DNA of 24,000 nt, taken from contig CAMCNU010000009.1 of NCBI GenBank assembly GCA_945876385.1, positions 17,898 to 41,897 on the forward strand. The letters are read 5' to 3'. The notes under the pieces were generated by a model. It had not been told where the DNA came from. It did not search any database and saw only the letters and a program-made list of their open reading frames with translations. Positions 2,558 through 15,736 of this stretch are shown here, one piece after another (within the stretch, counting starts at the first letter, position 1; the number at the start of each line of letters is the position of its first letter). The translations under genes were made by a program, and so were the position numbers. The stretch comes from an uncultured Veillonellaceae bacterium. GTDB taxonomy: Bacteria; Bacillota; Negativicutes; Veillonellales; Negativicoccaceae.

Positions 2558-2633
<76 letters not shown>

Positions 2634-2906: not shown

Positions 2907-2991
2907 TGGTGCCGGAGAAGGGACTTGAACCCCCACGGTGTTACCCGCCTGATTTTGAGTCAGGTGCGTCTGCCAATTCCGCCACTCCGGC
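2907..2991 (-). tRNA. tRNA-Leu (anticodon CAA), long variable arm, CCA encoded
   Basis: The reverse complement is GCCGGAGTGGCGGAATTGGCAGACGCACCTGACTCAAAATCAGGCGGGTAACACCGTGGGGGTTCAAGTCCCTTCTCCGGCACCA. The anticodon loop CTCAAAA gives CAA. It is a class II tRNA of 85 nt. Confidence 0.95.
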
Positions 2992-6451: not shown

Positions 6452-7218
6452 TCAACCTCCCCTGCGGTTATTACGCCGTTTCGCCTCGCGGCGAACGGCA
6501 TAGATAAATTGCGGCAAGACGGCCATACGTTTCCAGCGGCTCGGCTGTTTGTACACCCGATAGAGCCACTCCAAGCGATGTCGCTGCATCCACAACGGCG
6601 CCCGCCGCAAATGACCGGCCAGCACGTCAAACGAACCGCCGACACAAACGGCGGTCACGCCCGGCAACGATGCCCGTCGGGCACACGCCCAGCATTCCTG
6701 TTTGGGTGCGCCCAGCCCCACGAACAGATAGCGCGCGCCGCTCTCGCGAATCGTCGCCACAATGGATTCCGTCTCGTCGTCCTGAAAATACCCGTCACGC
6801 ACACCCGCGACAACCAATCCCGGCACGCTTTGCCGCAATTTCTCGGCCGCGGTTTGTGCCACACCGGGCTTGCCGCCGAGAAAATATACACGTTCCTGCC
6901 GCGCCGCCGCCCGCGCAATGAGCGCCGTCATAAAATCAATCCCCGCCACCCGTTCGGGAAACGGTGTGCCGAGCACCTGCCCCGCCCAGACGACGCCCGC
7001 GCCGTCCGGCAACACCAAATCCGCCTGCCGCAACGCCTCTGCCAACTGCATATCGACCTGCGCCCGCATGACGATTTCCGCATTGACCGTCGCGATATAG
7101 CGACCCTCTTTTGCGTCATGCCATGCGGTCACTCGTGACAACGCGTCCGCCTCCGAGAGCGGATGAATCCCCACTCCCAGTACGGACACGCGCTGTTCTT
7201 GTACTTGTTGTACTTGCA

Positions 7219-9859: not shown

Positions 9860-10558
9860 TCATTTTGAAAAATAGCGGCCGCGGCTTTCTTTGCGCGACT
9901 GCCATGCCTGTGTCAACGCCTTGGTCCACGCGGGATGGTGACCGTCCGTCACCAGCCAAAACATCTCGACCGTCGTCCCTCTGTCAATCAACCACGCGTG
10001 ATAGTACTGGTCCATCTGCACCCCGTGTTCGCGCCACGGTCGCATCCAGCTCCCGTAGAGCACACTGCCTTCGGCGTCGGCCTTGGCAAACGGCTGCAGC
10101 CATTGCACCTGCGGGCCGCAAAGTTGCGCCGCCAGTGCCGACGCCCGTGCCAGCCGCTCCGCGCGATCGGCCGGTACCTCACGGCGCGTCTGCTTGACCG
10201 TGAGCATCGGCAAACGCTGTTGCCCCGCCGCCTGTACGACAGCCCCGCGCGACGGCGTTACCGCTACCCGTTCCGTCCGCACAAAGGCGGCATCCAGCGG
10301 AATCCGCGCCGCCCACGCATAGGCAAAATCCGCCTCGCGCTGCCCGCGCAAGAGGTAGTATTCACTGCCGTAAATCCCGTGCCGATGTAAGCGCGCATTC
10401 CAGTTTCGCTCCGGTGCCGATGCCGGCATCCCGACCTCGACCTGCGTACCGGCAGGTAAGGTCATCTCGCCCAGACCCGGTATGCGCCACTCCGCCGCCT
10501 GCACGCTGCCGACCAGTACGCACAGCGCCGCACACGCACCGATCCAGATCCGTCTCAT
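9860..10558 (-). CDS. secreted hypothetical protein
   Basis: From ATG 10558 the product begins MRRIWIGACAALCVLVGSVQAAEW, which looks like a signal peptide. GAGGAGG lies 6 nt upstream. The gene sits 11 nt downstream of the glnS stop. I recognise no domain. Confidence 0.6.
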   Translation of the reverse strand: MRRIWIGACAALCVLVGSVQAAEWRIPGLGEMTLPAGTQVEVGMPASAPERNWNARLHRHGIYGSEYYLLRGQREADFAYAWAARIPLDAAFVRTERVAVTPSRGAVVQAAGQQRLPMLTVKQTRREVPADRAERLARASALAAQLCGPQVQWLQPFAKADAEGSVLYGSWMRPWREHGVQMDQYYHAWLIDRGTTVEMFWLVTDGHHPAWTKALTQAWQSRKESRGRYFSK

Positions 10559-10569
10559 GTGCGTCCTCC

Positions 10570-12243
10570 TCATGCTTTCTGCGCCCGGATTTTCGCCCAT
10601 GTATCGCGCAACCCGACAATGCGGTTCACGACCGGATGCCCCGCCGTCGTATCCGTATCGATGACGAAGTAGCCCTGCCGCATGAATTGGAACCGCGTCC
10701 CGACCGGATACTCCAAAATGGCCGGTTCCGCCAATGCCGCCAGCACGCGGAGCGAGGCTTCGTTGACCTTCTCTTCCGGTGCACGGTCATCAGCCGTGTC
10801 CTCCGGACTGAAGAGATACTCATACAAACGGGCTTCCGTCGGCACCGCGGTCGCGGCATTGACCCAATGCAACACGCCCTTGACCTTGCGCTGACTGCCC
10901 GGCGTGCCGCTCTTGGAATCGGGATCGTAGCTGCAGCGCAGCTCGACAATCTCGCCCGACGCATCCTTGACCACTTCGTCACAACGGATGATGTAGGCGT
11001 TTTTCAAGCGGACTTCCTTGCCCGGTGCCAAACGAAAGAACTTCTTTACCGGCTCTTCCATAAAATCCGCCCGCTCAATATAGAGCTCGCGGCCGAACGG
11101 CACCTCCCGCACGCCCGCCTGCGGGTCGTCGGGATTGTTTTCCACCGGCAAAAGTTCCTGCCGGTCCGCGGGATAATTCGTCAATACGACCTTCAGCGGT
11201 TCGAGCACCGTCATCAAGCGCGGCGCTTTCGTCTTGAGGTCTTCCCGTACACAAAACTCGAGCAGTCCGATATCGACCGTGCTGTCGTTTTTGGCGACAC
11301 CGATGCGCTCACAAAAATCCCGCAACGCTTCCGGCGTATAGCCGCGACGGCGAATCCCCGAAATCGTCGGCATCCGCGGGTCGTCCCAACCGGACACGAT
11401 GCCCGCTTCCACCAGCCGACGCAATTTGCGTTTGCTGGTAATCATCGTCGTCACATTCAAGCGGGCAAACTCGATTTGCCGCGGATGTTCCTTGGCCGGC
11501 CAGCTTTCCAAAAACCAATTGTACAGCGGCCGATGATCTTCAAATTCGAGCGTGCAAATCGAATGCGTAATATTTTCAATCGCATCGGACAGCGGGTGCG
11601 CATAATCGTACAAGGGGTAGATGCACCAGCGGTCTCCCGTCCGGTGATGATGCGCATGCAGGACGCGGTACATCACGGGGTCGCGCATGATGATATTCGG
11701 CGCCGCCATATCGATTTTGGCGCGTAAGACCTTCTCCCCGTCGCCGTACTTGCCGTCGCGCATCTCCGCAAAGAGCCGCAGATTTTCCTCGACACTGCGA
11801 TTGCGCCAGGGACTTTCCTTGCCGGGCGTGTTGAAATCGCCGCGATAGGCCTTGATTTCTTCACTGCTCAAATCATCTACATAGGCTTTGCCTTCGCGAA
11901 TCAACTGCTGCGCATAGGTATACATCTGTTCAAAATAGTCGGACGCAAAATGCGCTTCGCCTTCCCATTCAAACCCCAGCCACCGCACGTCTTCCTTGAT
12001 GGATTCGACGTATTCCGCTTCTTCCTTCGTCGGGTTCGTATCATCAAAACGCAAATTCGTCTTGCCGTGATACTTTTCTCCCAGTCCGAAATTCAGGCAG
12101 ATACTTTTGGCATGTCCGATATGCAAGTAGCCGTTCGGCTCCGGCGGAAATCGGGTATGCACGCGCTGATCGGCATACACCTCGTCGGCGATGTCGGCAT
12201 TGATTTCATTTTCAATAAAATTACTGCTTTTCCGCTCTTCCAT
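10570..12243 (-). CDS. glnS: glutamine--tRNA ligase
   Basis: RFPPEPNGYLHIGHAKS (HIGH motif) and a VTTMITSKRKL (KMSKS-like) region; the overall layout is GlnRS-like. I place the start at ATG 12243 (MEERKSSNF), which has GGGAGGAA upstream. Confidence 0.93.
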   Translation of the reverse strand: MEERKSSNFIENEINADIADEVYADQRVHTRFPPEPNGYLHIGHAKSICLNFGLGEKYHGKTNLRFDDTNPTKEEAEYVESIKEDVRWLGFEWEGEAHFASDYFEQMYTYAQQLIREGKAYVDDLSSEEIKAYRGDFNTPGKESPWRNRSVEENLRLFAEMRDGKYGDGEKVLRAKIDMAAPNIIMRDPVMYRVLHAHHHRTGDRWCIYPLYDYAHPLSDAIENITHSICTLEFEDHRPLYNWFLESWPAKEHPRQIEFARLNVTTMITSKRKLRRLVEAGIVSGWDDPRMPTISGIRRRGYTPEALRDFCERIGVAKNDSTVDIGLLEFCVREDLKTKAPRLMTVLEPLKVVLTNYPADRQELLPVENNPDDPQAGVREVPFGRELYIERADFMEEPVKKFFRLAPGKEVRLKNAYIIRCDEVVKDASGEIVELRCSYDPDSKSGTPGSQRKVKGVLHWVNAATAVPTEARLYEYLFSPEDTADDRAPEEKVNEASLRVLAALAEPAILEYPVGTRFQFMRQGYFVIDTDTTAGHPVVNRIVGLRDTWAKIRAQKA

Positions 12244-13327: not shown

Positions 13328-13356
13328 AAAAAAGGACGGGATTCCCCGTCCTTTTT
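13328..13356. terminator. bidirectional intrinsic terminator shared by the FAH gene (+) and the OLD cassette (-)
   Basis: AAAAAA-GGACGGG-ATTC-CCCGTCC-TTTTT has a U-tract on either strand. It lies 14 nt from the stop of the 204-aa ORF. Confidence 0.8.
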
Positions 13357-13369
13357 GCATGCACGCAGT

Positions 13370-13984
13370 TTATGCCCGGCGCACCGCATCGAACTCCGCC
13401 AACGCCGCCGCCAGACACGGCGCGGCGATACCGTAGCGCGACGTCATCCCCAGTATCCGCCGCACCGCGCCCTGCGCATTTACCCACATCTGCGCCGATT
13501 CACCGCACAGCAGCAGGTAGCGTCCGCCCGCCGCGTCCGCGACATCGGCCGTCGGCACGATATCGGGCGGCAGTATCTCCGCCAACGGAACAGCGCTTTG
13601 CTCCGGAACGGACGCCAATGCCGCCAGCCCCTGTGCGCACGCCGCCAACTGCGTCAACCGATACGCCTCGCGCGCGGTCGCCGCAAACAACTCCGCATGT
13701 AGATGATGCGCCGGCATCGGGCCCGTCAACCACATCGCCGCCTCCGCACGCAAGTCCTCTCGGTCCCGCCACGCCTGCCGCGACGCAGCCGCCGCCCACA
13801 CGGTCGGCACCGCCTGCCCTGCCTGCGCGAGCGCGGCAATTCCCCGCAATAGCGGCGCCGTCTCTACGGCATCGTCTGTCCCTGCTACCTCCTGCCGCAA
13901 CGCCTGCGCCGTCACACTGCGTTCTTCCTCTGCAATCACGGCCGCCGCCGTCGCCATGACCTCTCCCCAATCGACTTGTTCCAT
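13370..13984 (-). CDS. hypothetical 204-aa protein, partner of the OLD-family nuclease (no recognisable domain)
   Basis: The ATG at 13984 is preceded by GGAGGAG, which overlaps the TAG stop of the upstream gene. In-frame codons end overwhelmingly in G (GCG, CAG, GAG, ACG, CCG, TTG), like other minus-strand genes here. The ORF stops just before the terminator. Composition is unusual: 52 Ala and 0 Lys by my count. Confidence 0.7.
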   Translation of the reverse strand: MEQVDWGEVMATAAAVIAEEERSVTAQALRQEVAGTDDAVETAPLLRGIAALAQAGQAVPTVWAAAASRQAWRDREDLRAEAAMWLTGPMPAHHLHAELFAATAREAYRLTQLAACAQGLAALASVPEQSAVPLAEILPPDIVPTADVADAAGGRYLLLCGESAQMWVNAQGAVRRILGMTSRYGIAAPCLAAALAEFDAVRRA

Positions 13985-13992
13985 CGCTCCTC

Positions 13993-15660
13993 CTAACGCG
14001 CCAGCTCGGCCGCCCGCGCAATCGCCTGTCGAAATGAATGCGGTATCATCTCCGCCGTCAGTATCCGTCCCAACGCCCGTCCGACAATCACGCCTTTATT
14101 GCTGTACAGCCAGGCAAAATAATAAAATGTCAAACCGTCCGTATCGCGTCCCGAAATATTTTTCAACTTCTTCGCACCGAAATACCGGTTGCCGTTCGGC
14201 TTCCACTTACGGGCGGCCTTCGTCGCCATCTCGCGCCGCACCTGCCCGTCACTGCCGCCGATAAGGCGCACCACGGAACGCAGCTCTTTGAGCCCGCGAT
14301 TGGCCAGCAAATGCTTCACCACGTCGAGCTCAAAGCACGGCCCTTCCGTGAAAAACGTATCCGGCATCTCGCCGACTTGCTCACGGACATCACGATCGTA
14401 CAGCTTAACCGTCCCCAGTCCGAACCGGTGGAACAACTCCGCAATCCGCGCAATCGAGCTCTCCCCGCGGGCATTAATCAGCGAAATCCCCACATAATCG
14501 AAATGCACACCGAGCGATTTGCCGAACTCAAAAAACGCACCGTACTCCGTCTCCCCCTCGACAATCAGGACCGAGCGGGCATAGAGCGCCTCCTTGATTT
14601 CCGGAAAATGCATCACCAGATGCTTTTCCACATCCGGCGCAAAGGAAAATTCCGCGCCGCACGCCGCCCGCACACGTCCCTTGTCATCCCGATACAAGCG
14701 CATAATATAATGATAATCGTCAATCAGACAATCCGTCGAGTGCGTGACGATAAACAATTGCCCCTCGAGCCCGTCCACGCCCAAAAAATACGACAGCAAG
14801 TCGGTGACCAATCGGCTTTGATTGGCGATAATATCCCGATAAAAATGCAAGAGCGAACGCTGCAAAAACGGGTGGAGATGGATTTCCGGCTCGTCAATAC
14901 TGATGACCAACGGCAAGTATCGTCGATGGCGCTCATCAATCAGCAGATTATTCTCCCAAAAGGCGCTGTCCCGGTTGCGCAACTCCGCCAGCTCCGTCAC
15001 CAACTGGAATACCGCCGCGAGCAACATGCGAAACGTCTGCGCCGCTGCCCGTTCATCGGGGACCCCCGTATGCAAGTACGTCAGCCAGTCATCCGTCTGC
15101 GCCGTCGCTTGGGCGACCTCTTCCGCCCGTACACCCGTCCGTCGGGCCAGCTCTGCCAACAACTCCAGCGCCGCCTCCCCGCGCTCGGCAAAATACCCCT
15201 CAATCGACCGCTTGTACGCCGCCTGCCGTGACGGCTCCATCCCCGTCCGTCCGAGCTGCGACGGCATATGTGCCACATACCGCAACCGATGCAGCCAAAT
15301 GCGATCGACAGGCTGCCCCGTCTCGACATTCACAATCGTAAACAGCTCCTCATCGGGGCGCTGCGTCACTTCCAAATGCAAAAAACCGTCCTCATCCGCC
15401 AACGGCTGTCCGTCCGTCAGCAACTTGTGCCGCGCTTTCAACTGGAGCGTCAGCCGCACACGAAGCGGCCGGCGCACATCCAAAAAATCCGTCGCTAAAA
15501 AACGCGTCCCCGTGTGCAAGGTGTGCAGCAAATCCAAAAAGTTGGACTTGCCGATGCGATGCGATCCGACCAGGTAATTCAACTGCGGATGAAACGCCAT
15601 GCGCACATGTCGAAACGTCCGATAATTTTCCGCCTCTATCGTTACGATATGCACCCTCAT
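13993..15660 (-). CDS. OLD-family ATP-dependent endonuclease (ABC-type ATPase + Toprim domain), 555 aa
   Basis: Walker A GSHRIGKS (nt 15544-15567). Walker B/D-loop LVISIDEPEIHLHP (14869-14910). H-loop LFIVTHS. Toprim glutamate block VLIVEGETEYGAF (14533-14568) and a DxD in KLYDRDV (14386-14403). I place the start at ATG 15660 (MRVHIVTIEAENY), which has a GGGGGA ribosome-binding site. The track ORF extends to 15816, across the promoter region. Confidence 0.85.
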   Translation of the reverse strand: MRVHIVTIEAENYRTFRHVRMAFHPQLNYLVGSHRIGKSNFLDLLHTLHTGTRFLATDFLDVRRPLRVRLTLQLKARHKLLTDGQPLADEDGFLHLEVTQRPDEELFTIVNVETGQPVDRIWLHRLRYVAHMPSQLGRTGMEPSRQAAYKRSIEGYFAERGEAALELLAELARRTGVRAEEVAQATAQTDDWLTYLHTGVPDERAAAQTFRMLLAAVFQLVTELAELRNRDSAFWENNLLIDERHRRYLPLVISIDEPEIHLHPFLQRSLLHFYRDIIANQSRLVTDLLSYFLGVDGLEGQLFIVTHSTDCLIDDYHYIMRLYRDDKGRVRAACGAEFSFAPDVEKHLVMHFPEIKEALYARSVLIVEGETEYGAFFEFGKSLGVHFDYVGISLINARGESSIARIAELFHRFGLGTVKLYDRDVREQVGEMPDTFFTEGPCFELDVVKHLLANRGLKELRSVVRLIGGSDGQVRREMATKAARKWKPNGNRYFGAKKLKNISGRDTDGLTFYYFAWLYSNKGVIVGRALGRILTAEMIPHSFRQAIARAAELAR

Positions 15661-15682
15661 TCCCCCTTCGTACCTTACCGCT

Positions 15683-15691
15683 ATTATACCA
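15683..15691 (-). promoter_or_regulatory. extended -10 element (TGGTATAAT) for the OLD cassette
   Basis: The reverse complement of attatacca is TGGTATAAT, about 23 nt upstream of the ATG at 15660. The -35 is weak. Confidence 0.5.
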
Positions 15692-15736
15692 ACATTTATC
15701 TCACTCTGCCCGACCGCGGAATCGGCAAAAAAGATA

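Follow-up and report, generated by a model that had tools for sequence, protein, structure and literature searches.

Is an OLD-family nuclease gene whose stop codon runs straight into a second, smaller gene a portable two-gene defence cassette, or a resident of the chromosome that has taken on a companion? The question is raised by a pair of minus-strand genes in a 24,000-nucleotide (nt) stretch of DNA (hereafter the window) from an uncultured Veillonellaceae bacterium (contig CAMCNU010000009.1, positions 17,898 to 41,897 of the forward strand), one encoding a 555-amino-acid (aa) OLD-family protein (here simply OLD) and the other a 204-aa protein (the partner). OLD nucleases are currently classed by their neighbours and assumed to be mobile anti-phage genes, and a preliminary description of the window, made from its letters alone, had cast the pair as a candidate defence cassette with a domainless partner. 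We lean, with modest confidence, towards a different answer, in which the locus would hold a chromosomally fixed, GajB-less nuclease of GajA-type sequence together with an accessory pseudoenzyme that is dispensable and specific to its lineage. The OLD family and the GajA-type sequence are already known; what appears to be new is that a GajA-like OLD without GajB extends across a whole order, and that its partner here is a putative pseudoenzyme derived from 6-phosphogluconate dehydrogenase (Gnd).

The OLD nuclease and its likeness to GajA

The larger gene reads as a complete OLD nuclease, with the following features (positions are those of the window; AF2 denotes AlphaFold 2):

13993..15660, minus strand: OLD-family nuclease gene of GajA-type sequence (open reading frame [ORF] and translation, Pfam, PADLOC, AF2 model)
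15544..15567, minus strand: Walker A motif (P-loop) GSHRIGKS, residues 32-39, including K38 (read from sequence)
14869..14907, minus strand: Walker B motif and the region that follows it, VISIDEPEIHLHP, residues 252-264, including D256 and E257 (read from sequence)
14737..14748, minus strand: H-loop VTHS, residues 305-308 (read from sequence)
14389..14586, minus strand: Toprim core, residues 359-424 (Pfam PF20469, 46.8 bits)

As opened at the ATG at 15660, the frame runs for 555 aa to a TAG stop at 13995-13993. Translation more probably begins at the GTG at 15654 (553 aa), which lies 6 nt past a GGGGGA Shine-Dalgarno sequence, because the relatives begin OLD at a GTG or TTG 6-7 nt past theirs and the consensus of the family lacks two of the residues. 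The motifs from which the preliminary description had recognized an OLD-family ATPase and Toprim nuclease are all present, with DEPEIHLHP at residues 256-264 and the Toprim core carrying both VEGETEYG (E368, E370 and E372; VEGETE at 367-372) and YDRDV (D422 and D424; DRD at 422-424); Pfam agrees, matching AAA_15 (56 bits) as well as OLD-like_TOPRIM (PF20469). Across 85 homologues, invariance extends to G32, G37 and K38 of Walker A, to D256, E257, P258, E259, H261 and P264 of the Walker B region, to T306 and S308 of the H-loop (H307 being kept in at least 90% of sequences), and to E368, E370, E372, D422 and D424 of the Toprim core, plus K485. Since the catalytic residues are invariant in this set, the ATPase and nuclease activities are probably both intact. 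The ratio of nonsynonymous to synonymous substitution rates (dN/dS) of OLD is 0.06-0.10, similar to that of the neighbouring ddh.

Structure prediction agrees with this assignment. The AF2 model, built on the 85 homologues, has a mean predicted local distance difference test score (pLDDT) of 88, and a Foldseek search of the PDB with it returned the Thermus scotoductus OLD (TsOLD, 6p74, E-value 4.7e-15), then GajA (8u7i/8sm3, about 4e-14) and then the retron Eco8 OLD; the near-equal E-values for TsOLD and GajA do not separate Class 1 from Class 2, the TM score of about 0.4 being a matter of domain orientation. By its motifs, profile matches and predicted fold, the large protein is an OLD-family ATPase-Toprim nuclease.

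Which branch of the family it belongs to is answered by profile comparison. The PADLOC GajA model PDLC00085 matches the window OLD at an E-value of 1e-105 (353 bits), by far its best profile match, no other defence model, whether GajA, Old, AriA or PtuA, exceeding 70 bits. The same model gives 371-426 bits on orthologues from Veillonella, Megasphaera and Dialister, and over the window OLD and those orthologues taken together the other GajA and Old models reach at most 110 bits. For comparison, PDLC00085 gives 617 bits on a Lactiplantibacillus plantarum plasmid GajA, whose gene overlaps a true GajB helicase gene (PDLC00107, 552 bits) by 4 nt and is adjoined by hsdR. This protein is the closest plasmid relative of the window OLD, at 29% identity over 56% of the query (tblastn), or 25% over residues 12-424 (BLASTP). 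Residues 216-554 of OLD align in order, without a large deletion, to positions 236-578 of the GajA model, the level at which the helical Toprim insert of Class 2 (about 50 residues more than in Class 1) was compared, and the AF2 model places seven helices after the Toprim core. At the level of sequence, OLD thus falls within a GajA (Class 2) subfamily of Firmicutes.

Is the locus, then, a Gabija system? It shares with Gabija the order of an ABC ATPase followed by a Toprim domain, the same catalytic motifs, and a downstream gene that begins right at the OLD stop, in the manner of gajB; known Gabija genes are adjacent or overlapping (PMC10568477). The likeness ends with the GajA-type protein. 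A tblastn search with the L. plantarum plasmid GajB gave no match in the 24 kb of the window or in 96 related loci from six genera, viewed to about 6 kb on each side of OLD, and the gene in the place of gajB encodes instead the 204-aa Gnd-derived pseudoenzyme. Genomic setting differs as well, the window OLD being chromosomally fixed and vertically inherited between housekeeping genes, as against a defence island or plasmid. Where the preliminary description had placed the pair in no named system, the strong GajA match thus gives one half of a name, and the Gabija system to which that name belongs is incomplete.

The retron, PARIS and Septu contexts fit no better. Class 3 OLD proteins are retron effectors, whereas the neighbours here are ddh and an FAH gene, with neither a reverse transcriptase nor an msr/msd non-coding RNA (ncRNA), and the NCBIfam retron Eco8 effector model scores 30.6 bits against a cut-off of 250. 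PARIS (Class 4) divides its functions between AriA and a DUF4435 AriB, whereas ATPase and Toprim share one polypeptide in the window; AriA models give about 36-60 bits. Septu pairs an AAA_15 ATPase (PtuA) with an HNH nuclease (PtuB), whereas the partner here has no HNH match; PtuA models on OLD give 38 bits in PADLOC and, in NCBIfam, where the cut-off is 500, 22.5 bits. Class 1 is defined by context, as a solitary gene without a conserved defence neighbour (PMC10568477), and takes in P2 Old, TsOLD, Vibrio cholerae OLD and E. coli YbjD/OldB. Most Veillonellales orthologues are likewise solitary (in Veillonella, Megasphaera, Dialister, Acidaminococcus and Negativicoccus), the top structural match is the Class 1 TsOLD, and the E. 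coli gene ybjD is, like the window OLD, a resident chromosomal gene (PMC13261556). In sequence the window OLD nevertheless differs from Class 1, grouping with the GajA subfamily and matching the P2-type Old model at 62.6 bits. By context, then, the majority of orthologues resemble Class 1; in the window lineage there is in addition a co-transcribed partner without precedent in the literature that we searched, which held nothing relevant on orphan GajA, on a 6PGD domain in defence or on Gabija in Veillonella. Lacking GajB, retron RNA and reverse transcriptase, and with its ATPase and Toprim unsplit, the pair lies outside the four classes, as the preliminary description had argued.

The partner protein and the operon

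What, then, occupies the position of gajB? The partner gene and its informative part are:

13370..13984, minus strand: partner gene, 204 aa, a putative Rossmann-less, catalytically dead paralogue of the Gnd helical domain (Pfam, profiles, hhalign, alignment, dN/dS)
13373..13825, minus strand: partner residues 54-204, aligning to Gnd residues 273-439, the second helical repeat up to YFDxYR (hhalign and PDB profile alignments)

The frame opens at the ATG at 13984, closes at a TAA at 13372-13370, and encodes 204 aa without a single lysine. The preliminary description had remarked on this absence and had excluded a helicase, an HNH nuclease and a reverse transcriptase; no such profile match was found here either, but its term domainless has to be given up. 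The Pfam family 6PGD (PF00393, C-terminal domain) matches at 25.8 bits, just under its gathering threshold of 27, and precomputed PF00393 matches exist for all six members of the partner family. A profile of that family finds solved 6-phosphogluconate dehydrogenases in the PDB (best 2zyg, residues 299-446, E-value 1.2e-7), and its alignment to full-length Gnd by hhalign has 97.7% probability and an E-value of 1.9e-12. Longer homologues (235-250 aa) start exactly at the VHNGIEYGDMQ position and are collinear with the whole Gnd helical domain from there to YFDxYR, and members of the window clade have about 32 fewer N-terminal residues. The first residue of the partner falls no earlier than that of the helical domain, leaving no NADP-binding Rossmann domain, and in the alignment to Gnd the catalytic Lys/His/Glu (K..HNGIEY), KGTGKW, GGCIIR and the C-terminal tail are missing or substituted. 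With the Rossmann domain, catalytic residues, substrate motifs and tail all lost, the partner cannot be a dehydrogenase; as read from these alignments it is a pseudoenzyme in which nothing of Gnd but the helical dimerisation scaffold remains.

No full-length gnd lies near OLD at any locus searched, and the genomic context of the closest full-length Gnd (P0128) is uninformative as to a donor. On an unrelated contig (locus L096, 3696-5108), gnd is split into a 203-aa NAD_binding_2 ORF and a 215-aa 6PGD C-domain ORF, which illustrates a simple route by which a gene for a Rossmann-less Gnd helical domain could arise.

The two genes are arranged as one operon, with the following elements:

15683..15691, minus strand: extended -10 promoter element TGGTATAAT, some 25 nt ahead of the Shine-Dalgarno sequence (sequence and conservation)
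13985..13995, minus strand: junction, in which the OLD TAG stop overlaps the Shine-Dalgarno sequence of the partner, TAGGAGGAGCG, followed by the ATG (read from sequence)
13328..13356, both strands: bidirectional intrinsic terminator common to the OLD operon and the convergent FAH gene (RNA fold)

Between the OLD stop and the ATG of the 204-aa ORF stands GAGGAGCG, a layout that probably couples the translation of the two proteins. The stop falls inside or adjoins the partner Shine-Dalgarno sequence in five related loci as well (L001, L005, L086, L094 and L095), with a gap of 8-12 nt. A consensus promoter scan did not list the promoter because it has no -35 box; we accept it because it is conserved, a TGnTATAAT-like element standing at an equivalent distance upstream of OLD in seven related lineages. 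The terminator hairpin AAAAAGGACGGGGAATCCCGTCCTTTTTT (13356-13328), flanked by an A-run and a T-run, folds at -27.9 kcal/mol (z = -4.8 against shuffled sequence), and A-run/hairpin/T-run elements occupy the equivalent place in six related loci. Beyond these boundaries lie a convergent FAA_hydrolase (FAH) gene and the divergent DAPDH gene ddh. The preliminary description had read the stop within the Shine-Dalgarno sequence, the pair's own promoter, the bidirectional terminator and both neighbours from the window itself, and each of these readings is borne out, the implied translational coupling as a probability.

Two further observations concern these surroundings. At L088, a partner-less locus, the stops of the convergent OLD and FAH genes almost touch inside a palindrome, TAGTTTATAAACTA (6716-6725), with no hairpin terminator between them, unlike all other lineages. 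Further along the window, a conserved 246-aa ORF (9860-10600, minus strand) directly follows GlnRS and overlaps or abuts its stop; counterparts of 223-259 aa follow GlnRS at L001, L086, L090, L092, L094 and L095, with no Pfam family at any of them.

Inheritance of OLD and of its partner

A mobile cassette and a resident gene should differ in their distribution. The best 80 of 151 OLD loci are all from Negativicutes, with orthologues at 38-87% identity in Veillonella, Megasphaera, Dialister, Allisonella, Negativicoccus and Acidaminococcus. Each genus forms a clade of its own in a neighbour-joining tree of OLD, and the flanks are housekeeping genes that differ by genus:

Dialister and Allisonella: ThiC-OLD-PyrB
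Veillonella: EamA-OLD-MscL
Megasphaera: Fer4-OLD-type IA topoisomerase-SelB
Acidaminococcus: MatE-OLD-FKBP
Window lineage and Negativicoccus: ThrC-VTT-ddh-OLD-(partner)-FAH-GlnRS

ThrC...OLD...GlnRS synteny is common to the window lineage and Veillonella. Searches for mobile copies of OLD found no match in phages and, in plasmids, a best match only 29% identical; around the OLD locus we found no flanking repeats, att sites or nearby tRNAs. An Rfam scan of the window detected no retron or other ncRNA, its sole RNA genes being two tRNAs, tRNA-Ala(GGC) at 2558-2633 (plus strand) and tRNA-Leu(CAA) at 2907-2991 (minus strand), which lie about 10 kb off and are unassociated with the pair. Given the genus-monophyletic tree, the genus-specific housekeeping flanks, the low dN/dS and the want of phage or close plasmid copies, OLD is, so far as such comparisons can tell, an ancient, vertically inherited, resident chromosomal gene of the order Veillonellales. 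The word cassette, with its implication of a mobile defence unit, is therefore ill suited to a gene that is order-wide, syntenic and vertical.

Several observations made in the course of this comparison deserve mention in their own right. OLD genes from bins labelled Paludibacteraceae (L022), Lachnospiraceae (L047), Ruminococcus bromii (L050), Fusicatenibacter (L055) and Acutalibacteraceae (L059) nest within the Dialister or Megasphaera clades, and these bins are probably mis-binned. In Megasphaera, OLD is followed on the same strand by a type IA topoisomerase of 710-723 aa (Toprim, Topoisom_bac and Zn ribbon), usually after about 15-100 nt and at most about 350 nt (L017 7732-9864, L018 7732-9864, L069 7677-9818, and at least 11 others; SelB is next in L069), a genus-wide adjacency that could hint at a link to DNA topology or repair. 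In a Dialister subgroup (L012 2029-2670 and L016 4886-5494), the gene after OLD encodes a protein of about 202 aa with a Flp-pilin-like N-terminus, MKKQKGQDIIEYALMLAVVVGIGFG; it was considered as a partner homologue and rejected as Flp-pilin-like and unrelated to the window partner. Other ORFs of about 200 aa after OLD fared no better, those of Dialister L014, L015, L031 and L033 looking like antisense artefacts, and that of L011 overlapping a minus-strand FAH gene, as in the equivalent locus L092.

Has the partner travelled with OLD through this history? Partner homologues are confined to six closely related lineages among 1.84 billion representatives, searched exhaustively with HMMER, and 5.8 billion clusters, covered by two indexed searches; all weaker matches are ordinary Gnd, and a broader second profile search added nothing further. 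When run on the 80 OLD loci, a partner hidden Markov model (HMM) detected no downstream homologue beyond close syntenic relatives; more than 80 other OLD orthologues stand without such a partner. In all six lineages that have it, the partner lies straight after the OLD stop within the block ddh-OLD-partner-FAH-GlnRS. The ORF is intact in each of them, down to 28% identity, with invariant blocks (WL.GP.P..L, Q.G..RR, RYG.A.P and D..R) and a dN/dS of 0.15-0.29, which indicates purifying selection. It is also the fastest-evolving gene of its block, with identities of 58-60% for the partner, 86% for OLD and 93% for GlnRS. On the conservation of both frames, OLD and partner are real genes.

At three loci OLD is intact and the partner slot is empty: L088, L090 (Negativicoccus) and L092, in the last two of which OLD runs directly to the terminator. 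In those trees that include OLD, L088 nests among the partner-bearing lineages; these phylogenies, whose internal branches are short, imply that the partner was lost at least once while OLD was kept. The persistence of intact OLD without the partner in L088, L090, L092 and all other genera indicates that the partner is dispensable for the persistence of OLD and argues against an obligatory antitoxin; in a toxin-antitoxin-like pair the toxin gene would not persist without the antitoxin gene, and the OLD-partner pair does not behave in this way. A conserved association with OLD, of the kind that the preliminary description had looked to in other genomes, thus exists but only locally, in related lineages of one block and with a sister lineage having apparently lost it.

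Competing accounts of the locus and what they imply

How might these parts have come together? OLD would be a GajA-type ABC ATPase with an inserted helical region and a Toprim nuclease, its GajB lost or never present, and would have been a fixed resident of the chromosome since before the split of Veillonella, Megasphaera, Dialister and Negativicoccus. By analogy with studied OLD proteins (PMC10568477), it would be oligomeric and nucleotide-gated, with the Toprim domain nicking or cleaving DNA by two-metal catalysis and the ATPase controlling the timing. Because most orthologues have no partner, OLD can presumably work without one, as without GajB. In one Negativicoccus-related sub-lineage a truncated gnd paralogue would then have been inserted between OLD and the terminator, and its product may bind or modulate OLD as an accessory subunit in the position of gajB. 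For the partner such modulation is the most plausible role, with that of a passenger, for instance one interacting with Gnd, nearly as likely. The bolder formulation, in which a GajA-type nuclease domesticated as a core enzyme of the whole order, a bacterial counterpart of the archaeal Cran1, and a recruited dead Gnd domain acting as its regulatory subunit would make up a fifth, undescribed OLD neighbourhood class, is one we put forward only as a speculative possibility.

For the role of OLD itself, a precedent comes from the archaea. Yang et al. described Cran1, an OLD ATPase inherited vertically across the order Sulfolobales, which has a non-defence role in the cell cycle; its taxonomy-tracking conservation pattern prompted the suspicion of such a role, which was then confirmed (PMC12796447). 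Like Cran1 and clade U11, the OLD described here belongs to a taxonomically homogeneous, order-wide clade whose tree follows that of the organisms; the likeness is one of analogy only, Cran1 being archaeal and the present clade bacterial. A cell-intrinsic role of this kind, in DNA or chromosome maintenance or in constitutive surveillance, seems to us about evenly balanced between right and wrong. Owing to the order-wide vertical conservation among housekeeping genes, we find it somewhat likelier than a classical accessory anti-phage function, to which we still assign an appreciable minority share of our belief.

Other accounts of the pair start from the same evidence. An undescribed two-component anti-phage system, with the partner as an obligatory sensor, inhibitor or adaptor in place of GajB, would explain why the stop/Shine-Dalgarno layout is kept in six lineages while the partner diverges to 28-38% identity, and why no other home of the partner is detectable in 15 billion proteins; a fastest-evolving partner is what an arms-race component would be expected to be, and other members of OLD's GajA subfamily do need a downstream partner. 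We nevertheless judge it unlikely. The orthologues beyond the block stand alone among housekeeping genes, three sister lineages combine an intact OLD with an empty slot, hallmarks of mobility or of a defence island are absent, the association amounts to one event in one syntenic block, and a dN/dS below 0.3, rather than above 1, fits relaxed constraint equally well. A partner unrelated to OLD in function, sharing its promoter as a passenger gnd fragment and perhaps heterodimerising with full-length Gnd, by way of the helical dimer interface, to modulate pentose-phosphate flux, strikes us as similarly doubtful. It would accord with the retention of exactly the Gnd dimerisation domain, with the rise of Rossmann-less C-domain ORFs by gene breakage elsewhere (L096) and with an OLD that does without the partner in most genomes; yet the partner has lost the C-terminal tail of Gnd along with most of the motifs that contact substrate, the coupling to the OLD stop has been maintained across deep divergence, and the family is never found apart from OLD.

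Two simpler possibilities carry very little weight. The sub-threshold Pfam match of the 204-aa ORF, its alanine-rich composition, the N-terminal residues lost in the window clade and its low-confidence AF2 model might suggest that it has no protein function, being either a gnd pseudogene in decay or a frame that arose by chance in GC-rich DNA; a frame intact in six lineages, with invariant residue blocks, purifying selection and a conserved Shine-Dalgarno sequence before it, largely refutes this, and we regard it as highly improbable. We rate as equally remote an ordinary Gabija system with its gajB at some distant place in the genome. The GajA-model match is strong and 24 kb of the genome is in view, but none of the 96 loci has GajB within reach of OLD, the genes of known Gabija systems are adjacent or overlapping (PMC10568477), and the solitary arrangement is stable across the order.

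Several considerations tell against our preferred reading of a resident nuclease with a dispensable accessory. The OLD-partner association is one evolutionary event in one syntenic block, where co-occurrence is inseparable from shared ancestry, and the short internal branches behind the inferred loss of the partner are not robust. The locus survey scanned a single genome for each species and reached as far as its search patterns allowed; it confirmed 151 loci, of which the best 80 were inspected. For the partner, the AF2 model from a six-sequence alignment is all-helical with a pLDDT of 46, unusable for a fold search, and its identification consequently depends on sequence profiles. GajB could lie elsewhere in the genome, beyond the 24 kb. 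Finally, beyond Negativicutes the proteins closest to OLD are genuine GajA of Gabija, encoded on a plasmid next to a restriction system, and for this reason a defence role for the resident copy remains plausible.

Whichever role OLD proves to have, its setting gives it biological reach. Veillonellales are abundant human oral and gut bacteria, and since Veillonella parvula is genetically tractable, the role of OLD is directly testable there. Were it like that of Cran1, OLD would be a case, in bacteria, of a defence nuclease that has been domesticated, and HMM-only GajA matches may then over-call the defence content of Negativicutes. The partner, for its part, would show how a nuclease operon can keep a fragment of a metabolic enzyme as a pseudoenzyme. 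The interest of the locus would thus lie in an order-wide, domesticated GajA-like OLD and its Gnd-derived pseudoenzyme, and not in a portable two-gene defence cassette.

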